A stretch of 64,000 nucleotides of DNA from an uncultured Candidatus Nemicrothrix sp. (GCA_964344055.1 CAYFLT010000014.1:2632-66631); one strand, 5' to 3'. Counted from the first letter of the stretch, positions 291 through 9,912 are shown. Translations and numbers: made by a program. Notes: generated from the letters alone by a model not told the origin.

Positions 291-968
291 TCAGCCGGCG
301 GCGAAGGCGTCGCTGACGTCGCCGGCCACGAACAGGGCTTGGATCTCGCGCTGGTAGACGAAGATCGGGAAGAGCCCGCCGGGGCCGGTCACGTGGCTGG
401 TGATGGTGTGGTCGCCCTTGGTGACGGGCACCAGATGGGTCACGACGAAGGTGATGTCGTAGTCCTGCACCACCCCGCCGAACTCGATCGTCTCGATGCG
501 CTTGTCGAGGGTGGACGGCTGAACGCCGTCGAGCTCGATCCAACCCTCGACGAACTGATTGCCCGTGCCGGTGGCGGTGTCGTCCTCCCCCATCACCGTG
601 GTGGCGGTCACGAGGAGGTATCCGTCCGCCGGGGCGTCGACCTGCAGTGAATGAGTCCGCTCGAGCCCGTTCCCGTTGTCGATCGGGGTCTTGTCCACCG
701 CTTGGGCGGCGGCGGGAGCGAGGTTGTCGTGGTAGCGCTTCGCGAACGTGACGTTCTGGGCGCGGGTCACACCGTCGTCGGGTCCGAATCGGCCGTCTCC
801 GTACCCGGAGGTGATGCCGTTGTCGTTCGCCCATGTGACCGCGTCGGTGTAGAAGGCATTGTCGGGGACGTCGTCGAAGACATGCGTGGCGAGCACGGTG
901 GCCGGAGAGATCAACGCGACGACGAGTACGAAGATCGCGAGTCGGAATCGGGTGATGGTGAAGGTCAT
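291..968 (-). CDS. Secreted protein with N-terminal S-layer-homology (SLH)-like domain
   Basis: Signal peptide MTFTITRFRLAIFVLVVALISPATVLA. SLH-like motif FDDVPDNAFYTDAVTWANDNGITSGYGDGRFGPDDGVTRAQ. ATG at 968 preferred over TTG at 989. Confidence 0.7.
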   Translation of the reverse strand: MTFTITRFRLAIFVLVVALISPATVLATHVFDDVPDNAFYTDAVTWANDNGITSGYGDGRFGPDDGVTRAQNVTFAKRYHDNLAPAAAQAVDKTPIDNGNGLERTHSLQVDAPADGYLLVTATTVMGEDDTATGTGNQFVEGWIELDGVQPSTLDKRIETIEFGGVVQDYDITFVVTHLVPVTKGDHTITSHVTGPGGLFPIFVYQREIQALFVAGDVSDAFAAG

Positions 969-1074
969 GGCACCGCCTGGGTCGAGCAACGTCGGCGACC
1001 CTAGAACGAGTGGGTGAGCGTCGCCCAGCCCGATTTCCTACACTGAGAGTGGTTCCGTCTCGGGGGAGGGATTC

Positions 1075-2175
1075 GTGGAACGTCGCGCCACTATCACCGG
1101 CTGGGGGAAGTGTGTCCCGCCGGTGAAGTTGACCAACGCCGATCTCGAGCAGCTCGTCGACACCAGCAACGACTGGATCATGGACCGGACCGGGATCAGT
1201 GAGCGGGGGATCTCCCACGTGGAGGTCACCGATCTCGCCGAGGTCGCGGCCGAACAGGCGCTGGCAGCGGCCGGTCTCGAGGCCGGTGACATCGACCTGC
1301 TCGTGGCGGCCACGGTCACGCCGGAGATCACCTGCCCCAGCAACGCCTGCTACCTCCAGGAACGAATCGGCGCATCGAACTCCGCGGCGTTCGATCTGAA
1401 CGCGGCGTGTTCGGGTTGGGTCTACGGCACCGCCACGGTGACGTCGATGATCGAGTCGGGTATCGCCGAGCGGGTGCTCCTCGTCGGCGCCGAGAAGCTC
1501 CACTACGTGATGGACTACTACGACCGGGGCCACTGCATCCTGTTCGGTGACGGGGCCGGGGCCGCGGTGTTCGAGGCGTCGACTGCGGGCGACGGCATCC
1601 TGAGCCATGACCTGGGGGCGGATGGCGTGTCCGGTCGCACGATGGTGTTCCCCACGCTCGGAACCCGCGGGGAGATGCTGCGCCCGCGTGATCCGGCCGT
1701 CGATCGGCTCCATTTCGAGGGCCAGGCGGTGTTCAAGCTCGCAGTGAAGGGCATGGCCGCGTCCGTGACCCGGGCGCTGGAGCGGGCCGGGATGGGAGTC
1801 GACGACGTCGATCTCGTCATCCCGCATCAGGCCAACGAACGCATCATCGATGCGGCCATCCGGCGGCTGAAGGTGCCGGCGGAGAAGGTCATGGTGAACA
1901 TCGGCACGCACGGGAACACCGCCGCGGCATCGATCCCGATGGCGCTCTCGGACGCGCTCGACGAGGGACGGATCCAGCCCGGGTCCATCGTTGTGCAGAC
2001 CGCATTCGGTGGCGGCGTCACCTGGGGGTCGACCGTCATGCGCTGGGGCGATCGCGTGGATCCCCTCGGGCACTCCGACCTCGAGCTGCCACCTTGTGAC
2101 AAGTCGGTGTTCGACCTGCTCGCCGACAACCGGGCGTTCTTCGCCCCGTACCACGGCATCCCAGTCGACAACTGA
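1075..2175 (+). CDS. fabH: 3-oxoacyl-ACP synthase III (FabH/KAS III family) with ~40-aa C-terminal tail
   Basis: Catalytic contexts NAACSGW (Cys), IPHQANERI (His) and GNTAAASIP (Asn). GTG start. Extra tail after ...GGGVTWGSTVMRW keeps high GC3. Confidence 0.9.
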   Translation: MERRATITGWGKCVPPVKLTNADLEQLVDTSNDWIMDRTGISERGISHVEVTDLAEVAAEQALAAAGLEAGDIDLLVAATVTPEITCPSNACYLQERIGASNSAAFDLNAACSGWVYGTATVTSMIESGIAERVLLVGAEKLHYVMDYYDRGHCILFGDGAGAAVFEASTAGDGILSHDLGADGVSGRTMVFPTLGTRGEMLRPRDPAVDRLHFEGQAVFKLAVKGMAASVTRALERAGMGVDDVDLVIPHQANERIIDAAIRRLKVPAEKVMVNIGTHGNTAAASIPMALSDALDEGRIQPGSIVVQTAFGGGVTWGSTVMRWGDRVDPLGHSDLELPPCDKSVFDLLADNRAFFAPYHGIPVDN

Positions 2176-2291
2176 CCCGGATCGAGCGGGTCGGCTGGGC
2201 CGAACGGCCCAGGACCACCGGGACCAACTGCCCATCGCGAAACATCGAGAGGGGCCGATCCTGACCGCACCCAGGCGGGCGGAAGGATCCC

Positions 2292-2981
2292 ATGGCCATT
2301 CGAGTGTTCCTCTTGGATGATCACGAGCTCGTGCGCGAGGGCCTGCGTGCCGTTCTCGAGCGGGAGGCCGACATCGAGGTCTGTGGTGAAGCTGCCACCG
2401 CCACCGAGGGGCTCGCTGGAATCGAGGCCACCCGTCCCGACGTGGCGCTGATCGACCTCCTTCTCCCTGATGGGGATGGTCTCGACGTCTGCCGTGGCAT
2501 CTCCGAGCGTTTCCCCGACGTGGCCTGCCTGATCTTGACGTCCTATTCGAATGACGACGTACTGCTCTCCGCGATCCGGGCCAACGCCTCGGGATTCCTG
2601 CTGAAGCGAACGGCCGGGAGCGAGCTGGTGCGCTGCGTGCGGATCGTGGCCGACGGAGGCTCGCTGATCGATCCGGCCCTGACCGGGCGACTGCTCGACC
2701 GGCTTCGCAGCGGAGGGATCGAACAGGGGCATGAGACCGCGCTCGGCAGCTTGAGCCCCCAGGAGCGCCGGCTCCTCGACCATCTGGCGGAAGGGCTGAG
2801 CAATCGCCAGATCGCGGAACGGATGGGTCTCGCCGAGAAGACGGTCAAGAACTATGTCTCGAACCTGCTTCGAAAGCTCAAGATGAGCAGCCGGACCGAG
2901 GTGGCGGTCTACGTCACCAATCTCCGCGCCAGCCAGCAGCGCGAGGATCGCCTTGAGGATGACACCGGACCCATGGGCTGA
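2292..2981 (+). CDS. NarL/FixJ (LuxR-type HTH) response regulator, no adjacent kinase
   Basis: Receiver domain IRVFLLDDHELVREGL ... ALIDLLLPDGDG. C-terminal LuxR HTH LSPQERRLLDHLAEGLSNRQIAERMGLAEKTVKNYVSNLLRKL. Confidence 0.9.
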   Translation: MAIRVFLLDDHELVREGLRAVLEREADIEVCGEAATATEGLAGIEATRPDVALIDLLLPDGDGLDVCRGISERFPDVACLILTSYSNDDVLLSAIRANASGFLLKRTAGSELVRCVRIVADGGSLIDPALTGRLLDRLRSGGIEQGHETALGSLSPQERRLLDHLAEGLSNRQIAERMGLAEKTVKNYVSNLLRKLKMSSRTEVAVYVTNLRASQQREDRLEDDTGPMG

Positions 2982-3033
2982 GGCGCCCGAGGACATGGTC
3001 GGGCCGCGAATCGACCTCGGGTAACTTCGTCGC

Positions 3034-4167
3034 GTGAACAGCGGCGGTGAGAAGCTGAACGAACTCGAGCGAGTGGTCCGCGACCTCCTCAGACCGGAGG
3101 GAGCGAAAGACCCCGAAGCCGTCGTGCGGGCCTGGGAAGGGCCTGACGCGGAGGCCCTGCGGGTAGCAGTAGACGAGCACCGACTGGAAGCGGCGCTGAT
3201 CGACGCGCTCGAACGGGCCGGAGCATCCGTCGATCCCGCCCTGGCCGAGCGGGCCGCGGATGACCGGGTCGTCCGCCTCCTCGCCGGACGGGTGCTCAAC
3301 GACGCAGCAGCCGTGTTCGACGGCGCCGGGATCCGATGGGCCGTGTTCAAGGGGCCGGTCGCGGCCGGTCTCATGCCTCGACCCCATCTTCGCACGTTCA
3401 ACGACCTCGACCTCCTGGTCGAACCGGCGAGGTTCGGTGACGCGATCGATGCGCTGGTCGAGGCGGGGGCGGAGGAGCAGAACCAGAACTGGAGCGCCTA
3501 CCATCGGCATCGCGTCGGTGAGGTGCCGATGGCGATGCGCGACATCACCGTCGATCTCCACTGGCACCTCGTCGGTCTCGGCCGGGACCGCGACACCATG
3601 GCCGTCGACGTCGGAGCGATCCTCGACCGGCTTCGACTGAGAGAGGTGGACGGTCGGGAGCGGCCGATCTTCGCGGCCGAGGATCTGGTCGTCTACCTCG
3701 CGCTCCATGCCGCCCTCGGCGGCGCCACCCGGCTGGACCAGCTGCGGGACCTCGCGGTCGCCATCTCGGCGGACCCGTTGGACTGGGGCGTGGCCGCCGA
3801 ACGAGCGGAGGCGTGGCAGGTGACGCGGCTGGTGGCGCATGCGCTCGATCGGGCGGCCATCCTTCTCGGCGCGCACGTTCCCCCTCCGGTACTCGAACGG
3901 CTCGGGGGGAGAGGGCTCGAACGGCGGCGACGGCTCGACGAGGGTCGGTCCCTCGAGCTTCGGTCGTTCCCGGTCGCCTCGCGCCGGGACCGGCCACGAC
4001 AGGCGGCGAAGGTCCTTTTTCGCCGAGGGTTCCAGCGGGTGTGGTTCCCCGGCCGACAGGGGTGGGACTTCACCGACGAGCGTGGCCGGCTGTACCACGC
4101 CAGGTACGGAGGCGGAGACTCCGCTCGCCGCGAGTTCCTCGAGGCGGTCGCGGCAGGGATGCGCTGA
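3034..4167 (+). CDS. Nucleotidyltransferase family protein (uncharacterised NTP_transf_5 type)
   Basis: Motifs FNDLDLLVEPARFGDAIDALVEAG and DITVDLHWHL are typical of this family. GTG start. The antisense ORFs overlapping it are R/G/P-rich junk. Confidence 0.75.
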   Translation: MNSGGEKLNELERVVRDLLRPEGAKDPEAVVRAWEGPDAEALRVAVDEHRLEAALIDALERAGASVDPALAERAADDRVVRLLAGRVLNDAAAVFDGAGIRWAVFKGPVAAGLMPRPHLRTFNDLDLLVEPARFGDAIDALVEAGAEEQNQNWSAYHRHRVGEVPMAMRDITVDLHWHLVGLGRDRDTMAVDVGAILDRLRLREVDGRERPIFAAEDLVVYLALHAALGGATRLDQLRDLAVAISADPLDWGVAAERAEAWQVTRLVAHALDRAAILLGAHVPPPVLERLGGRGLERRRRLDEGRSLELRSFPVASRRDRPRQAAKVLFRRGFQRVWFPGRQGWDFTDERGRLYHARYGGGDSARREFLEAVAAGMR

Positions 4168-4193
4168 CCTACTGGTCCGAGCCCGGACGCGAA

Positions 4194-4220
4194 TCGAGGG
4201 GCGGCGGAGCCGCCCCTCGA
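4194..4220. terminator. Bidirectional stem-loop TCGAGGGGCGGC-GGA-GCCGCCCCTCGA between convergent genes
   Basis: Perfect 12-bp stem with a 3-nt loop, read directly. Lies between the stop at 4167 (+) and the stop at 4248 (-). Confidence 0.7.
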
Positions 4221-4247
4221 TCGTTCAGATCTGTCAATCTCGCCGGA

Positions 4248-4352
4248 TCAGGTGTCCTGAAGAATCACGCGACGGCTGCCGCGAGGACGGTGATTGCCGA
4301 GGCTGCCCTCGAGCTCGAGCTTGCTCTCGATCGCCGGCTTTTCGTACTGCAT
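4248..4352 (-). CDS. Small ORF, 34 aa (MQYEKPAIESKLELEGSLGNHRPRGSRRVILQDT); candidate RiPP precursor peptide
   Basis: Hand-translated; below the 60-aa cutoff of the ORF track. AGGAGG sits 6 nt upstream of the ATG. YEKP(A)I resembles the YxxP leader motif bound by PqqD-like RRE domains. Followed by the hairpin at 4194-4220 and preceded by a 140-nt lower-GC region. Confidence 0.55.
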   Translation of the reverse strand: MQYEKPAIESKLELEGSLGNHRPRGSRRVILQDT

Positions 4353-4428
4353 GTTCGCCCTCCTGGGGGGATCCGTTGTCGGATCACAGAGATACCACTC
4401 AGAGTGGGATCGATGGAAGCGCGTTGGG

Positions 4429-4453
4429 CTGAAATTGATGTTTCAGTCTGAAA
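4429..4453. promoter_or_regulatory. Possible operator: CTGAAA-N6-TTTCAG-N1-CTGAAA half-site array upstream of the small ORF
   Basis: Palindromic hexamers read directly in the AT-richer spacer, 77-101 nt upstream of the ATG at 4352 on the minus strand. No known binder assigned. Confidence 0.25.
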
Positions 4454-4492
4454 ACGGGCAGTTTGACTCAGATTCCCCCAACGATTGGCGTA

Positions 4493-4888
4493 TCACGTTC
4501 CGTGGTCAGGCCGTGGGGTGCGTCGCCGGAGGCCGATCCGGCGCGCGACCGCTCTCGTCGTGAACGCCAGACGAGCCCATCGACGATCCATCCTCCCGAA
4601 GCGGCGGAGCCGACCCGAGGGGGCTCGGACCGACGCAACACGGCCGATGAGGCGAGTTCTCGGCACCGGTTCGTCGTCGACCAGATTCCCCGTCCCGCGC
4701 CCGGTCACCAGATCGGCGGCGACATGGCGAATCCGGTGGACGAGGACCCGTTCGTGATCGTCGACGAAGGCCCAGATCTCGCCGGGACGGGGCGCATCGC
4801 CATCGACGATCCGAGCCGTCGAACCCGACTCGATCACCCCTCGCATGCTGGTCCCGGTCACCGGCACGTCGATCGGCTCTTGCGTCAC
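4493..4888 (-). CDS. S24/S26 (SipW-like) signal-peptidase-family serine peptidase
   Basis: VTGTSMRGVIESGSTARIV (Ser-Met nucleophile motif), GEIWAFV, LVHRIRH and TGRGTGNLVDDEPV (resembles TKGDANxxxD). GTG at 4888 chosen because ATG at 5074 would overlap the divergent kinase gene. Start uncertain. Confidence 0.6.
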   Translation of the reverse strand: MTQEPIDVPVTGTSMRGVIESGSTARIVDGDAPRPGEIWAFVDDHERVLVHRIRHVAADLVTGRGTGNLVDDEPVPRTRLIGRVASVRAPSGRLRRFGRMDRRWARLAFTTRAVARRIGLRRRTPRPDHGT

Positions 4889-5006
4889 CCGCGTCCGCAG
4901 CAGCTTGGCGGTGGTGTCGGGGTCGGTCGTGCTCACCGGGCTCGACCGTAACCGAGGCGAGGTCCTCCAGCGGTGCTCCTGCGTCGGCTTTGATTGCGTC
5001 GTGGCG

Positions 5007-5927
5007 ATGTCGGATCCGGAGTCGTGGACCCTCGATTGTGGAGGGATCGGTGTTGCGGTCGAGGCTGCCGACACCGAGTTCGGCGCGACCGTTCACCACC
5101 GCCTCGGTGTCGCTCCGATCGAGCGTGAGCCCGAGATCTTCCTCCAGGCCGGCCCGGACGTGCCGGCGCCACCCGACGGTCTCGATCCTCAGGCGCTGGA
5201 GGACTACCTCGGTTGGGACCGGAACGGCGAGGTCTGGATCACCGATGACGACATGGCCGTCCACGTGTCCGGCGGCCGGGTGGTGGTCGGTGGCCGGGTC
5301 GGCGGGGTCGAGGAGGAGGACCGGTTCGATGACCTCCTCCAGTTCGGTGTGGCAGTGGCGGCGGCGACTCCGACTCGACTGATGTTGCACGCCGCGGTGA
5401 TCTCCCGAGGCGACGGGGCGCTGCTCCTCGTCGGCGGCTCGGGTGCGGGCAAGTCGACGCTTGCCGGAGCCGCCCTCGTCGGGGGTTGGACCCTGCTCGG
5501 TGACGACCTCACCGTCGTCGACACGTCTGCGGGAACGGTGCGCGCCGTGCGACGGCCACCGCTCGTGCCTCGGGAGATCGCCGAGCCGCACGGTCTCGAA
5601 GGGACCCCGGAGGACGCTCCTCGTGGACGCACCCAACTCCCGATCGAAGTCCTCGGAACCGGATCACGGCACCTGGTGGGAATCGTCAGTGTCGACCACG
5701 GCACCGCGGGCGCAGTCGGCCGACGGCCGGCGAGGGATCTCGACGTCCTCGACGACGCACTGGCCGTCCCGCCGTTTAGCGGCGTGATCCGCCGTCACCT
5801 GGCGGCGGGCGCCTGGCTCCTCCAGGTGCCCGCGGTGCTGCTCGAACACGCGGTGGACCCGACTCGCCGGGTGCCCCGTGCCATCGAACTGTTGGACGAG
5901 GCCTGGGACCTCTTCGACGCGGGGTGA
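5007..5927 (+). CDS. HPr-kinase-related (HprK C-terminal-like) P-loop kinase
   Basis: LHAAVISRGDGALLLVGGSGAGKSTLAGAALVGGWTLLGDDLTVV matches the HprK C-domain Walker-A region. ATG at 5007 (MSDPESW...) taken as start. Confidence 0.7.
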   Translation: MSDPESWTLDCGGIGVAVEAADTEFGATVHHRLGVAPIEREPEIFLQAGPDVPAPPDGLDPQALEDYLGWDRNGEVWITDDDMAVHVSGGRVVVGGRVGGVEEEDRFDDLLQFGVAVAAATPTRLMLHAAVISRGDGALLLVGGSGAGKSTLAGAALVGGWTLLGDDLTVVDTSAGTVRAVRRPPLVPREIAEPHGLEGTPEDAPRGRTQLPIEVLGTGSRHLVGIVSVDHGTAGAVGRRPARDLDVLDDALAVPPFSGVIRRHLAAGAWLLQVPAVLLEHAVDPTRRVPRAIELLDEAWDLFDAG

Positions 5928-5930
5928 CCG

Positions 5931-6743
5931 TCAGTAGGTGCCCAGCGTTCCGGCCCGTCGTGCGACGGTGACGGCGCGACGAAAGAGCGAGGCACTGGCC
6001 GGTAGGGCCACGACGACGAAGACGAGGAGGAGCGCGATCTCGTCGAGCGCGTCACCGAGGCCGGCATCGGCCTGGGCCAGTGATCGGACGGCCCGGACGC
6101 CGTGCGTCGCCGGGAGGAACTGGGCGACCCCCTCCATCCAGCCGGGCAGTACCGAGAGTGGGTAGAGCGCGCCCGACAACAGCAGGGTGATCTTCTCGGC
6201 TGGGCCGCTGAACGGGTCGCCCCGCTTCACCAGCACGATGAAGGCGGCGGAGAGGATCCCGAAGGGCATGAACGAGGCCGTGGTGAGCAACAGGACCGGA
6301 GTGGCCGCCAGCAGTCCGCTCACGGCGATCCCCGAACCGAAGAAGCCGAGACCGACCGCCACCAGGATGACGGTTTCCACGATGACGAACCCGAGGGGTA
6401 CGACATGGCTGGCCGCGACCAGGGTCCACGTCGGCGTCGGCGTCGTGAGGATCGCTTCGAGCGTCCCTTCGTTCTGCTCCTCGGAGATCTGACCCGCGAA
6501 CGAGGCGAGTCCGACGATCGCGAAGTTCGTGACGATCGCACCCACGAGCACGAACTCGAAGTAGCCGCCACTGAGATCGGCGATCGCGTCGGGATCGCCG
6601 ACGAACTCCCCGATGAAGTAGAAGCTCACCGCGAAGTAGCCGACGTGGACGAGGCGCATCACCAGGTCGACGCGGTAGGAGGTCAGCGTGATGAGCTCCT
6701 TGCGGACCACCGCCCTCACCCGGTTGGCGTTTCCCTGCCTCAT
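5931..6743 (-). CDS. ABC-2 type transporter permease
   Basis: About 6 hydrophobic spans. Overlaps the upstream ATPase gene by 4 nt (ATGA-type coupling). Confidence 0.8.
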   Translation of the reverse strand: MRQGNANRVRAVVRKELITLTSYRVDLVMRLVHVGYFAVSFYFIGEFVGDPDAIADLSGGYFEFVLVGAIVTNFAIVGLASFAGQISEEQNEGTLEAILTTPTPTWTLVAASHVVPLGFVIVETVILVAVGLGFFGSGIAVSGLLAATPVLLLTTASFMPFGILSAAFIVLVKRGDPFSGPAEKITLLLSGALYPLSVLPGWMEGVAQFLPATHGVRAVRSLAQADAGLGDALDEIALLLVFVVVALPASASLFRRAVTVARRAGTLGTY

Positions 6744-7522
6744 GCGGGGTCCGAGCCAGTGCTCTCATCCGCCACGAGGGTCTCGAGGCGGGTGCCGAGT
6801 CCGGTGGGGTCGCCCGCGATCTCGCCGGCGTCGCCCTCCCAGACGATACGGCCAGCGACGAGCGCAACCACCCGGTCACAGGCCAGGACGACCTCGTCCA
6901 GGCGATGGTTCGCCATCAACACCGCACGGCCGTCCTCCGCGAGGGCACGGAGTTGGTCGCAGACCTGGCGGCCGGCGAGCGGATCGAGGCTTCGCGTGGG
7001 TTCGTCGAACACGAGGAGCCCGGGGTCGTGCAACATCGCCCTCGCGATGCCGAGCTGGGCGAGCATCCCCGATGAGTAGCCGAACACGGCCTTGTCCCGG
7101 TGTGCGAGGTCGCGCTCGAGCATCGAGCGATCGACCCGCTCCCGGATGGTCGCCCGGTCGAGCCCGGCGAGGGCACCGAAGTACTCCAGGTTCTGTCGGC
7201 CCGTGAGCCTCCAGTGGAATGACCGTTCCTCGGGGAGCGACAGTCCGAAGCGGGTGGTCACCATGGGGTCGTCGGGCACGACGGGATGGCCGTCGATGGT
7301 GATCGATCCCTCGGTCGGGGCGAGCAGGGTGGTGATGGAGCGGATGAGTGTCGACTTGCCGGCCCCGTTGGGGCCGATCAGGCCCACCACTTCGCCTGCG
7401 TTCACTCGGAGGTTCACACCCTCGAGCGCTCGCACCGGCTCATCGGTGGCGGCTCGCACCAGATGACGCATCAACCCTCTCGGGGGGAGGTACGTCATGC
7501 CGACGCCGGCGACCTCGAGCAT
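6740..7522 (-). CDS. ABC transporter ATP-binding protein (DrrA-like exporter class)
   Basis: Walker A GPNGAGKST, signature-like YSSGMLAQ, Walker B LLVFDEPT. Confidence 0.9.
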   Translation of the reverse strand: MLEVAGVGMTYLPPRGLMRHLVRAATDEPVRALEGVNLRVNAGEVVGLIGPNGAGKSTLIRSITTLLAPTEGSITIDGHPVVPDDPMVTTRFGLSLPEERSFHWRLTGRQNLEYFGALAGLDRATIRERVDRSMLERDLAHRDKAVFGYSSGMLAQLGIARAMLHDPGLLVFDEPTRSLDPLAGRQVCDQLRALAEDGRAVLMANHRLDEVVLACDRVVALVAGRIVWEGDAGEIAGDPTGLGTRLETLVADESTGSDPA

Positions 7523-7524
7523 CG

Positions 7525-7788
7525 TCAGTCGGCGGTGACGAGGGCGGCGTCCGCGAGAGACGCCACGAATTCGGCGATGTCGGCCTCGAGCTCCGACTCC
7601 GACACCCCCTCGAAGCGTTCGGAGAGGTCACGCGCGAGCGCGGCGACATCGCGTTCGCCGTCCAGTTCGTGCCAAATGACGGTGCCCACCGCGTTCAGGG
7701 TCGTGATGACGGAGCCATCGGCGTCGAGGATGACGACACTGTCGCCACTCGGCTCGAAGGTCACGCCCTCGGCGCGTCGGATTCCCAT
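7525..7788 (-). CDS. PqqD-family protein (RiPP recognition element-like)
   Basis: GVTFEPSGDSVVILDADGSVITTLNAVGTVIWHELDGERDVAALARDLSERF... is typical PqqD. GAGGAG sits 6 nt upstream of the ATG at 7788; the ATG at 7854 gives an implausible G/A/R-rich extension. Confidence 0.8.
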   Translation of the reverse strand: MGIRRAEGVTFEPSGDSVVILDADGSVITTLNAVGTVIWHELDGERDVAALARDLSERFEGVSESELEADIAEFVASLADAALVTAD

Positions 7789-7881
7789 GTTCTTCTCCTC
7801 GGCTCGCGTCGCCGCGGGGCCGCGCCCCTTCGGCGCGCCCGACTGACTGCCCATCGGCCGATGTCGCCGGGATGAGAGGAA

Positions 7882-9024
7882 TCAGGGAGCGGTGCGGCCC
7901 CGCCGGTGGGCGCTCTCGGTGAGCGTCTCCTCCTCCACCTCGTGGTGTTGGCGATAGCCCGAGATGAACGCCTGGGCGGTGGCGGCGAAGGGAAGCGCCA
8001 GCAGGGCTCCCACGACACCGAGTAGTGCGGCGCCGGCCAGCACGGAGCCGAACGCCACGGCGACATGCATCTCCATGGTCTGGGCGGTGACCTTGGGAGC
8101 GAACACGTAGTTCTCCACCTGCTGGTAGACGAACACCACGACCAGCACCGCCAACCCCTTCTGGGGATCGTCGAGAAGGGCCACGATGACCGGGAGCGCA
8201 CCGGCGATGTAGGTGCCGACCACGGGGATGAACTGGGACATCACCCCGAGCCAGATGGCCAGCGGAACCGGGAACGGCACGTCGATGACGGTGAACGCGA
8301 TCCAGTGGGCGACCGACGAGAAGATGGCCAGGACCGTCCGCGAGTAGATGTAGCCGCCGGTCTTCTCGATGGCGAGATCCCAGACCGACAGCACCACCCG
8401 CTGGCGCTCCGGTGACAGGAAGGAGCAGACGGTCCGGCGCAGCTTCGGTCCTTCGGCGACGAGGTAGAAGACGAACAGCAGGACCGTGAAGGCCTGGAAC
8501 ACCACGTTGACGATGGTGGTGCCGAGGTTCAACACGTCGTCGGCGAACCGCCCGGCGAGATCCGACACACCACCGCCCTCGACGAACTCGTCACTCAGGC
8601 TCTGCAGGTCGATGTCTTCGTCGACATTGTCCTGGAGCCACTCCTCGAGATCGTCGACGTAGCCGGGGGCCTCACCGATGAACTCGTCGAGCTGGGTGGC
8701 GAGGGCCGTGCCGATCGCGGCGGAGAAGCCGACCATGGCACCGAGCAGGGCGAGATAGACGAGCCAGACCCCCAATCCACGCCGGATGCCCCAGCTCTCG
8801 AGCCGGTTGACGGCGGGCTCGATCGCGAAGGACAGGAACAGGGAGATCAGGACGACGATCAGGAGGGATCGCAGGGATCGCAGTGCCCCGGTGCCGAGAT
8901 AGACGATGACCCATCCGAGCCAGAACAAGCCGATGGCCTTGATCACCCAGAGCGGCACTTTCGCACCCTGGTGCCACGGTGCGTCGTTGTCGATCGGAGC
9001 GGTCGTGTCCTCGGAATCCGCCAT
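7882..9024 (-). CDS. AI-2E family (PerM/UPF0118) transporter
   Basis: About 8 TM spans with family-typical length and pattern (…FLSFAIEPAVNRLE…, …GLAVLVVVFVYQQVENYVFAPKV…). Confidence 0.85.
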   Translation of the reverse strand: MADSEDTTAPIDNDAPWHQGAKVPLWVIKAIGLFWLGWVIVYLGTGALRSLRSLLIVVLISLFLSFAIEPAVNRLESWGIRRGLGVWLVYLALLGAMVGFSAAIGTALATQLDEFIGEAPGYVDDLEEWLQDNVDEDIDLQSLSDEFVEGGGVSDLAGRFADDVLNLGTTIVNVVFQAFTVLLFVFYLVAEGPKLRRTVCSFLSPERQRVVLSVWDLAIEKTGGYIYSRTVLAIFSSVAHWIAFTVIDVPFPVPLAIWLGVMSQFIPVVGTYIAGALPVIVALLDDPQKGLAVLVVVFVYQQVENYVFAPKVTAQTMEMHVAVAFGSVLAGAALLGVVGALLALPFAATAQAFISGYRQHHEVEEETLTESAHRRGRTAP

Positions 9025-9160
9025 CGCGAGGAACCTACTACTTCGGTTGGTTCCAGGGGGTCCTCTCTATACGCTTGTGCCCTCGTGTGAACGGGTTTCC
9101 CGGTCACCGCAATCGACGTCCGTGAAGGCCCCCCGGGGAACCACACGGCAAAACCGATCC

Positions 9161-9241
9161 AACGCTCCGCCGGGCCTGCCCGTGCGGAGCGTTCGCGTGG
9201 AACCCCCGGGCTCCATGCCACGGATACAGCGTGGAACCCCC
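9161..9241 (+). promoter_or_regulatory. Structured leader upstream of rplC: 10-bp hairpin (9161-9170/9184-9193) followed by direct repeat GCGTGGAACCCCC (9195 and 9229)
   Basis: Read directly in the 246-nt divergent intergenic region. Function (promoter or autoregulatory leader) is inferred only. Confidence 0.3.
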
Positions 9242-9270
9242 CAGGTTCTACTGACCCACAGGAAGCAACC

Positions 9271-9912
9271 ATGGCCACCAAGGCGATCGTCGGCGAGAAG
9301 GTCGGCATGACGCAGGTCTGGGACGACGAGAATCGTGTCGTCCCGGTCACCGTCCTGCGCGTGTCCCCGTGCCGTGTCGTGCAGGTCAAGACACCTGAGA
9401 GCGACGGCTACAGCGCCATCCAGGTCACGCTCGGCGTGAAGGATGCGGGCAAGCTCACCCGGCCCGAGGCCGGACACTTCGACAAGGCCGGCGTCGACCC
9501 GGGCCGCACGCTCGTCGAGCTGCGCCTCGACGACGTCAGCGAGTTCACGGTCGGACAGGAGATCGGCGCCGATGTCCTCGAGGCCGGCGAGCTGGTGGAT
9601 GTCACCGGCGTGTCGAAGGGCAAGGGGTTCACCGGTGTGATGAAGCGTCACGGCTTCGGCGGCGGTCCCGCCAGCCACGGCGCCCACAAGATCCACCGCA
9701 AGCCGGGAGCGGTCGGCCAGTGCGCCACGCCGAGCCGGGTGTTCAAGGGCAAGAAGCTGCCCGGTCGCCACGGTGCCTCCAAGGTCACCACCTTGAACCT
9801 CGAGGTCGTGAAGGCGGATCCCGAAGCCGAGATCCTCCTCGTGAAGGGCTCGGTTCCGGGCCCCCGGGGCGCCACCGTCGTGATCCGCGACGCGGTCAAG
9901 GGAGGCAACTGA
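9271..9912 (+). CDS. rplC: 50S ribosomal protein L3
   Basis: GMTQVWDD..., FTGVMKRHGFGGGPASHG. Confidence 0.97.
   Translation: MATKAIVGEKVGMTQVWDDENRVVPVTVLRVSPCRVVQVKTPESDGYSAIQVTLGVKDAGKLTRPEAGHFDKAGVDPGRTLVELRLDDVSEFTVGQEIGADVLEAGELVDVTGVSKGKGFTGVMKRHGFGGGPASHGAHKIHRKPGAVGQCATPSRVFKGKKLPGRHGASKVTTLNLEVVKADPEAEILLVKGSVPGPRGATVVIRDAVKGGN

Follow-up and report, generated by a model that had tools for sequence, protein, structure and literature searches.

The described systems closest to the locus presented here are the biosynthetic clusters of phosphorylated lasso peptides, of which bsf of Bradymonas sediminis, paeninodin (pade) and pseudomycoidin (psm) were compared, with clusters of Acidovorax sacchari (L007) and Bacillus rhizoplanae (L008) as examples. 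The leader of lasso precursors carries a YxxPxL motif at positions -17 to -12, which is recognised by the RiPP recognition element (RRE; RiPP, a peptide made on the ribosome and modified after translation), and a Thr residue, rarely Ile or Val, at position -2 (PMC10368454). In the bsf system the precursor BsfA is processed at ...IYKKPQLTYHSTLAAIIR|GTSGNE..., Ser3 is phosphorylated by the kinase BsfK, whose activity is stimulated by BsfB1, and the H..G..G.GKS..DD motif of BsfK has been validated by mutagenesis (PMC10368454). In the pseudomycoidin system a nucleotidyltransferase homologous to the one described below adds hexoses to the phosphoserine (PMC8498205); the chemistry of PF14907 enzymes in lasso systems is uncharacterised in vitro (PMC8498205, PMC10368454). 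According to RRE-Finder, about half of the proteins retrieved with the discrete lasso-RRE model come without a cyclase and a leader peptidase (PMC7470986). The stretch of DNA analysed here, 64,000 nt from an uncultured Candidatus Nemicrothrix sp. (GCA_964344055.1 CAYFLT010000014.1:2632-66631) and referred to as the window, contains a minus-strand open reading frame (ORF) of 34 codons that, as judged from sequence comparisons, is very probably the gene for the precursor peptide in a peptide-maturation module of seven genes from an uncultured Acidimicrobiales bacterium. A candidate precursor peptide had been proposed at this position in an initial annotation of the window, and its conservation, its leader motif and the neighbouring PqqD and kinase genes all support that proposal.

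The peptide gene and the signals around it are as follows:

4248..4352, minus strand: precursor-peptide gene, 34 codons plus stop, read ATG...TGA, product MQYEKPAIESKLELEGSLGNHRPRGSRRVILQDT

4359..4364, minus strand: Shine-Dalgarno sequence AGGAGG, followed by 6 nt (GCGAAC) and the ATG

Parts of the window peptide: leader, residues 1-18; variable stretch, residues 19-23; R24-G25-S26-R27 motif, at 4283-4272; variable tail, residues 28-34

4388..4408, minus strand: upstream element CCCAC-N4-AGTGGTAtctcT, with a TGgTAnnnT part like an extended -10, 40 nt before the ATG

4180..4221, minus strand: G+C-rich hairpin with the conserved 3' flank TTCGCGTCCGGGC, stem at 4193-4221, between the convergent peptide and nucleotidyltransferase genes

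Both the ORF (4352..4248) and the AGGAGG box placed 6 nt ahead of its ATG (4364-4359) had been read correctly. The ORF had also been called untracked, whereas exactly this 34-residue product is already annotated as a gene on four contigs (NCBI, Logan, ENA).

Comparison with its relatives shows that the peptide gene is a real, conserved coding gene. A lack of conservation in related genomes had been named beforehand as a reason to abandon the proposal; a motif scan of the related loci combined with a profile search yielded 26 distinct homologues. At E ≤ 0.001 the profile, built from four sequences and run against 1.84 billion representative proteins, retrieved 17 members of the family and a single false positive, P0029, a 504-aa repeat protein. 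Another candidate, a single locus (L015) picked up in metagenome contigs with a 43-bit degenerate DNA pattern of the leader, is AT-rich and was discarded as a chance match (VYKKPDIESQVYFQGY). The leader consensus M-(x)-Y-x-K-P-x-I-x5-L-E-G-x-L is common to all 26 peptides, with Y3, P6, I8, L14, G16 and L18 invariant and K5 and E15 each replaced by Gln in one peptide. The codons at the six invariant positions vary synonymously (Pro has four, Gly three, and Tyr, Ile and both Leu have two each), and the pooled pN/pS ratio of the leader is 0.43. The resemblance of the N-terminal YEKPAI to a YxxPxL-type leader motif, pointed out in the initial annotation, is thereby extended to the whole family, as Y-x-x-P-x-I is retained throughout.

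The leader is followed by a hypervariable linker of 4-18 residues, usually rich in Arg, Lys or Gly, and by the motif (R/Y)-G-S-(G/R), which occurs exactly once in each peptide, often after Pro, and whose Ser corresponds to Ser26 in the window. In shuffles keeping the composition the motif arose by chance in about 4% of single cores, and in all cores at once in 0 of 2000. The tail, unrelated between members, has 1-11 residues after the four-residue motif (2-12 counted from the residue after Ser). Of the four phosphate acceptors proposed earlier, Ser26 is invariant; the other three are not conserved and are therefore unlikely acceptors: Ser10 is frequent, with H, Q, R, D, G or T instead in 9 of the 26 peptides, the position of Ser17 varies among S, A, E, N and L, and Thr34 is equally unconserved. 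Two loci, L013 (86-1219) and L017 (3850-4823), carry four tandem paralogues each, with near-identical leaders and divergent linkers and tails. A short ORF beside an RRE and modifying enzymes, with a conserved leader and a variable core, is what is found in RRE-dependent RiPP precursors generally. The (P)-R-G-S motif of the window peptide (4272-4283, residues 24-27) also resembles the leader/core junction of BsfA, R|GTSG, which hints at cleavage between Arg and Gly; its likeness to the thrombin site LVPR|GS is coincidental.

A purine-rich, GGAGG-like box lies within about 15 nt before the start codon in most of the 16 homologous peptide genes. The lower-GC spacer of 140 nt described upstream of the ORF is reflected in a G+C content of 0.58 at 4201-4500, compared with about 0.68-0.72 around it. 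The preference for A/T-ending codons claimed for the C-terminal half exists in the window ORF, where G or C ends 9 of the 15 codons, as against 18 of the 19 leader codons and 85.5% of those in 12 neighbouring genes; the G+C content at third codon positions (GC3) of this half falls in the lowest 1.8% of 15-codon windows, which is a modest signal, and low GC3 is not a trait of the family. Likewise, the TTTCAG, CTGAAA and TTTCAG half-sites reported in the spacer are present (4453-4448, 4446-4441 and 4434-4429), but the palindrome is absent as a conserved element from the related loci and was rejected as a conserved regulatory site. A GTGGTAnnnT element is found 40-48 nt ahead of the ATG in 15 of 16 genes, each tandem copy included (10 counted with a scripted pattern and 5 by inspection; L006 has GGTA only). 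It resembles an actinobacterial extended -10 and may serve as a promoter; a scan with the sigma-70 consensus gave no match. Overlapping the putative -10 is a CCAC-N6-GTGG inverted repeat formed by CCCAC (4404-4408) and AGTGG(TA) (4393-4399); the repeat is retained in L001, L005 and L010 as in the window, is recognisable in most other loci, and could be an operator.

The hairpin downstream of the gene, initially delimited as 12 bp at 4194-4220, is present, with its extent corrected to a 13-bp stem at 4193-4221. The folding energy of the 81-nt hairpin region is -41.3 kcal/mol (z = -3.4 relative to shuffles). A scan for consensus terminators did not call it, and no T-run follows the stem. A strong hairpin is located 3-46 nt past the stop codon in all 16 peptide genes for which DNA is available, and compensatory changes are seen at 8 of its 11 pairs across the homologous genes. 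On its 3' side all 16 cassettes share an invariant CGCG core, within a conserved (T)TCGCGTCCGGGC that directly follows the hairpin at 4180-4192 in the window and at the equivalent site in 15 other genes; the conservation of this flank is too strong for a merely passive terminator flank. The hairpin is probably a terminator devoid of a T-tract or a 3'-end stabiliser. Since an upstream element and a hairpin accompany every tandem copy, the tandem copies appear to be complete promoter-to-hairpin cassettes. No Rfam family was found at the ORF, the spacer or the hairpin. Inside the peptidase gene, at 4666-4751, both strands weakly match the plant miRNA precursor model MIR6426, with 26 bits where the gathering score is 96 (E = 0.015), which is most likely a chance palindrome.

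The remaining genes of the module are:

3034..4167, plus strand: PF14907 (NTP_transf_5) nucleotidyltransferase, Pfam E = 1.3e-31, convergent with the peptide gene

4493..4927, minus strand: soluble S24/S26-type serine peptidase (clan SF), TIGR02228 sigpep_I_arch at E = 1e-5, below the cut-off; start uncertain, ORF up to 5074

5007..5927, plus strand: HprK-like P-loop peptide kinase, TIGR04352 at E = 1e-14, below the cut-off; ORF opens at 4845, likely start at about 5007

5931-6743, minus strand: permease of an ABC-2 exporter, ABC2_membrane

6740-7522, minus strand: ATPase of the ABC-2 exporter, ABC_tran, DrrA-like

7525..7854, minus strand: PqqD-family RRE, PF05402 at E = 1.5e-15

Apart from the window, 11 distinct loci, comprising every locus with enough DNA, keep the order NTP_transf_5 / peptide(s) / soluble S24/S26-type serine peptidase / HprK-like kinase / ABC-2 permease / ABC ATPase / PqqD. 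Homologous PqqD and HprK-like genes, the association that the initial annotation had suggested looking for, adjoin the peptide homologues in every locus long enough to show its neighbours, the ABC-2 exporter is conserved in all related loci, and the nucleotidyltransferase gene adjoins the peptide gene in every locus reaching that far. The signature of the latter enzyme, G-x(n)-D-x-D (FKGP...NDLDLLV), was identified by inspection, and in tblastn the enzyme is matched at E = 1e-10 by the N protein of L008, a Bacillus lasso cluster, which is itself a PF14907 member.

The kinase contains all eight residues of the catalytic motif of lasso kinases (BsfK, PadeK, ThcoK), which bears out the initial designation of this neighbour as HprK-like, phosphorylation itself being a prediction. 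These residues (H128, G143, G146, G148, K149, S150, D166 and D167) are invariant in nine members of the kinase family, and the spacing H-x14-G-x2-G-x-G-K-S-x15-D-D is identical to that of H148-G163-G166-G168-K169-S170-D186-D187 in BsfK, to which the catalytic core is 42% identical over 57 residues. A structural model computed from nine sequences (predicted local distance difference test score, pLDDT, 89.5) matches PEPCK at E = 4e-8 and HPr kinase/phosphorylase at E of about 1e-4; relatives of the kinase carry precomputed matches to PF27840 (ScmC). No significant match came from sequence searches of the PDB, which were run for the kinase, its profile and the peptidase.

In the peptidase the Ser of GxSM, the His-Arg of VHRxR, GRGxGN and a DD pair (S27, H64, D84, D85) are invariant. 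In its model (pLDDT 84) there is a helix at the N-terminus and a long basic one at the C-terminus, and the PDB folds that it matches best are those of the LexA C-domain, human SEC11A/C and the C-terminal domain of lambda cI; the model and the invariant residues together display the fold, Ser nucleophile and His general base of clan SF. No hydrophobic membrane anchor was seen on inspection of the sequence. The protein is a candidate for removing the leader or the tail. Taken at their longest, the peptidase ORF (minus strand) and the kinase ORF (plus strand) overlap by 230 nt (4845-5074); alignment of homologues suggests later starts, at about 4927 and about 5007, leaving a short divergent promoter region between the two genes. 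The homologues of the PqqD protein are 87-88 aa long, and its start is therefore likely to be Met23, at 7788. It is 35% identical to BsfB1 over 79 aa (pairwise E = 2e-11), and its matches to the NCBIfam PqqD and lasso PqqD models are below the cut-offs, the best being to the PqqD of pyrroloquinoline quinone (PQQ) synthesis.

The related loci were gathered with protein searches for the kinase, which has nine close relatives of 51-66% identity among 5.8 billion clustered proteins, and for the peptidase, which added five more proteins; one locus, L019 (582 nt), was uninformative. The surroundings of the module are of at least three kinds: the window and L001-L005 have it in an rpsJ/rplC island, L006, L016 and L018 have it beside PhoH and a molybdopterin (Mo) oxidoreductase, and L017 has it beside ATPase_gene1; it is also present in L010, L011, L013 and L020. 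The family is rare and is known from metagenomic contigs only, the window being the single one with an assignment (Acidimicrobiales). The end of the window's module lies just upstream of rplC, and Pfam and NCBIfam scans together with ORF reading place the following genes beside it:

2292-2981, plus strand: LuxR-type response regulator

7882-9024, minus strand: AI-2E transporter

From 9271, plus strand: rplC, followed by other ribosomal protein genes

The rplC product has its best named relatives in metagenome-assembled genomes of Acidimicrobiales. The LuxR-type regulator and the AI-2E transporter were rejected as parts of the module, being absent from L006, L016, L017 and L018. The genes rpsJ (S10) and rplC (L3) are normally adjacent in the S10 operon; in L001-L003 (L001, 1-12939) the entire island sits between them, and L005 (1-10354) has the same gene order up to the contig end, with its first gene truncated. 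The island content in the window (291-9271) comprises an S-layer homology (SLH) protein, FabH, the LuxR-type regulator, the peptide module and the AI-2E transporter; a motif search found no S10 gene in the window. On the 3' side of the SLH-domain gene, at 162-274, there are two tandem 52-nt self-complementary elements, CGTTCTGGGTGGG...CCCACCCAGAACGG, 94% identical and with a spacing of 61 nt, which could be repeats of the repetitive extragenic palindromic (REP) or the terminator type. PADLOC returned generic ABC-ATPase similarity only, and the module is thus no known defence system.

The gene content of the module suggests a pathway whose chemistry downstream of the precursor can be proposed by analogy. 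The PqqD protein would bind the leader through Y3, P6 and I8 and present the peptide to the kinase, which would phosphorylate the invariant Ser26; the nucleotidyltransferase may then extend the phosphoserine. The S26-like peptidase, standing in for the absent B2 protease, would remove the leader in one of two registers, either after residue 19 (LEGxL-x), which is the lasso register with Leu18 at -2, or at R24|G25, as in R|GTSG of BsfA, to give peptides of 4-14 residues starting with GS. The small linear, mostly cationic product would finally be exported by the ABC-2 pump.

Several observations weigh against a secreted, phosphorylated peptide of this kind. All the loci are metagenomic, and the kinase, the PqqD protein and the peptidase all score under the curated cut-offs of the nearest NCBIfam models. 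The distance between the Y motif and Ser, 22-36 residues across the family, is unusual for RRE-positioned enzymes. Peptidases of the S26 family follow a small-residue rule at -1 and -3, and LexA cleaves between Ala and Gly; the Ser motif fits neither rule, which makes the cleavage site a guess. The invariant Ser is internal, for which BsfK is the sole precedent, the characterised lasso kinases of Firmicutes and Sphingomonads acting on a C-terminal Ser (PMC8498205). The nucleotidyltransferase chemistry, moreover, has been demonstrated in lasso systems in vivo only (PMC8498205).

Some of these proteins would also suit a peptide that is handled by PqqD and the kinase without being an exported product, such as the precursor of a cofactor-like molecule for use inside the cell, or a kinase substrate or decoy with a regulatory role. 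PqqD-family proteins serve cofactor pathways as well (the precursors PqqA and MftA), the PQQ PqqD model gives the best, if subthreshold, NCBIfam match of the window protein, and invariance in the C-terminal part is limited to Gly-Ser and the flanking (R/Y) and (G/R), as in cofactor precursors in which only the reacting residues are fixed. Such a role is nevertheless unlikely: an ABC-2 exporter pair is present in every copy of the module, hypervariability to either side of the motif and four-copy arrays are typical of diversifying secreted peptides and not of cofactor precursors, and the Pfam scan revealed no radical-SAM or other cofactor-forming enzyme.

More improbable still is an ordinary lasso precursor whose cyclase and B2 protein are encoded elsewhere in the genome. 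What speaks for it is the YxxPx(L/I) motif of the leader, the ability, in principle, of Gly25 and Asp33 of the window peptide to close a 9-membered macrolactam, and the company kept by related kinases. A scan of genome contigs with the kinase alignment found at least three distant kinases, those of L007, L008 and Paenibacillus violae (L009), of which two or more belong to canonical lasso clusters; L007 and L008, which hold the closest kinase homologues from isolate genomes among the matches listed, each encode an Asn-synthetase-like cyclase, a transglutaminase-like B2, a PqqD-type B1, K, N and a fused ABC exporter. However, tblastn with two cyclases and the L008 B2 protein gave no match at E < 0.1 in the 64-kb window and nine related loci, while in the same searches the lasso K and N proteins matched the expected genes at E = 1e-7 to 1e-11, and Pfam detected neither Asn_synthase nor PF13471 among the cluster proteins. 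The same seven genes, devoid of cyclase and B2, moreover recur in three unrelated flanks. In 12 of the 26 peptides there is no Asp or Glu after the leader, so that no isopeptide ring is possible in them; in the window peptide the only acidic candidate is Asp33, one residue from the C-terminus, and a ring closed between Gly25 and Asp33 would have a one-residue tail, unable to thread. The YxxPxI residues are invariant; in the lasso register, position -2 would fall on the equally invariant Leu18, which is neither Thr nor Ile nor Val. Of the hallmarks of a lasso cluster, the PqqD-type B1 RRE is present, and the cyclase and B2 are missing, as is a core pattern of Asp or Glu at position 7-9 plus a threading tail. 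Judged by its genes and peptides, the cluster is not a lasso cluster, and the peptides, without cyclase or B2 and with nearly half of them lacking an acidic residue, are not lasso peptides.

A chance ORF in G+C-rich intergenic DNA, with the hairpin as the terminator of the convergent nucleotidyltransferase gene, has a negligible probability: high-G+C DNA is indeed rich in spurious ORFs (the first 12 kb of the window hold 114 that are 30 aa or longer) and a hairpin between convergent genes could serve both, but the profile search brought in 17 true members for one false hit, conservation acts on amino acids while synonymous codons vary, and the tandem copies each have their own upstream element and hairpin, most with a Shine-Dalgarno box.

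The precursor of a peptide-maturation module therefore remains the preferred reading of the ORF, and the parts of that module are known; we regard it as a lasso-derived, cyclase-less RiPP-like module. A literature search found no description of a cyclase-less RRE, kinase and PF14907 module with an S26-type peptidase and this peptide family, and we know of no prior description of a soluble S26-type peptidase in RiPP maturation. A broader proposal, which we put forward tentatively and rate slightly below an even chance, is that the module represents a new RiPP class of short linear, mostly cationic peptides with a phospho-Ser, possibly glycosylated or nucleotidylated, at RGS. Its origin would be a phosphorylated-lasso pathway that lost the cyclase and B2 and took on a cytoplasmic homologue of S26-type signal peptidases to remove the leader. 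If this were true, the K and N enzymes, known from lasso systems as tailoring enzymes, would be class-defining here. The lasso kinase and the PF14907 enzyme, hitherto treated as optional, are in this module, with the RRE, the sole candidate modifying enzymes, and phosphoserine, possibly glycosylated, could be the class-defining modification, provided that the product is confirmed. The module also offers a simple linear substrate for working out the function of PF14907, and the peptide family may explain some of the orphan lasso-RRE matches of RRE-Finder. The impact of these proposals depends on heterologous reconstitution, given the rarity of the family and its restriction to metagenomic contigs.

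Among known systems, the pairing of a PqqD-family protein with an HprK-like P-loop protein is shared with HPr-rel-A (TIGR04352) and with ScmC/ScmD of SynChlorMet (TIGR04249, TIGR04248; PF27840). The scores, however, are far below the cut-offs of these models (54.2 versus 200 bits for TIGR04352, 18 versus 125 for ScmC and 31 versus 100 for ScmD), the TIGR04352 match, the best of the window kinase in NCBIfam, spans profile positions 88-156 only, and the module, unlike the Scm cassette, has no radical-SAM partners; among the papers searched, none on the HPr-rel-A or SynChlorMet systems was found. The peptidase resembles ER/archaeal-type S26B signal peptidases (SEC11, SipW) and LexA-type S24 self-cleaving domains in its predicted fold, GxSM, the His of VHRxR, placed like the general base of S26B, and the GxGN..DD box, and differs from them in the missing hydrophobic anchor, in its location in a RiPP-like module and in candidate cleavage sites that are neither Ala-x-Ala nor Ala|Gly. 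From lasso clusters the module is set apart by the lack of an Asn-synthetase-like cyclase and a transglutaminase-like B2, by a soluble S24/S26-type serine peptidase, and by a two-gene ABC-2 exporter (DrrAB-like) in place of the fused ABC exporter of L007 and L008; its peptides, nearly half of which have no acidic residue for ring closure, differ from lasso precursors also in the cationic linker of variable length between leader and Ser. With the phosphorylated lasso clusters, on the other hand, it shares the leader motif Y-x-K-P-x-(L/I) (..IYKKPQL.. in BsfA and ..QYEKPAI.. in the window), a discrete PqqD-type RRE, an HprK-like kinase with an identical motif, a PF14907 enzyme and an ABC exporter, and with bsf in particular a Ser close to an R-G junction, R|GTSG in BsfA and RGS(G/R) in the peptide family.

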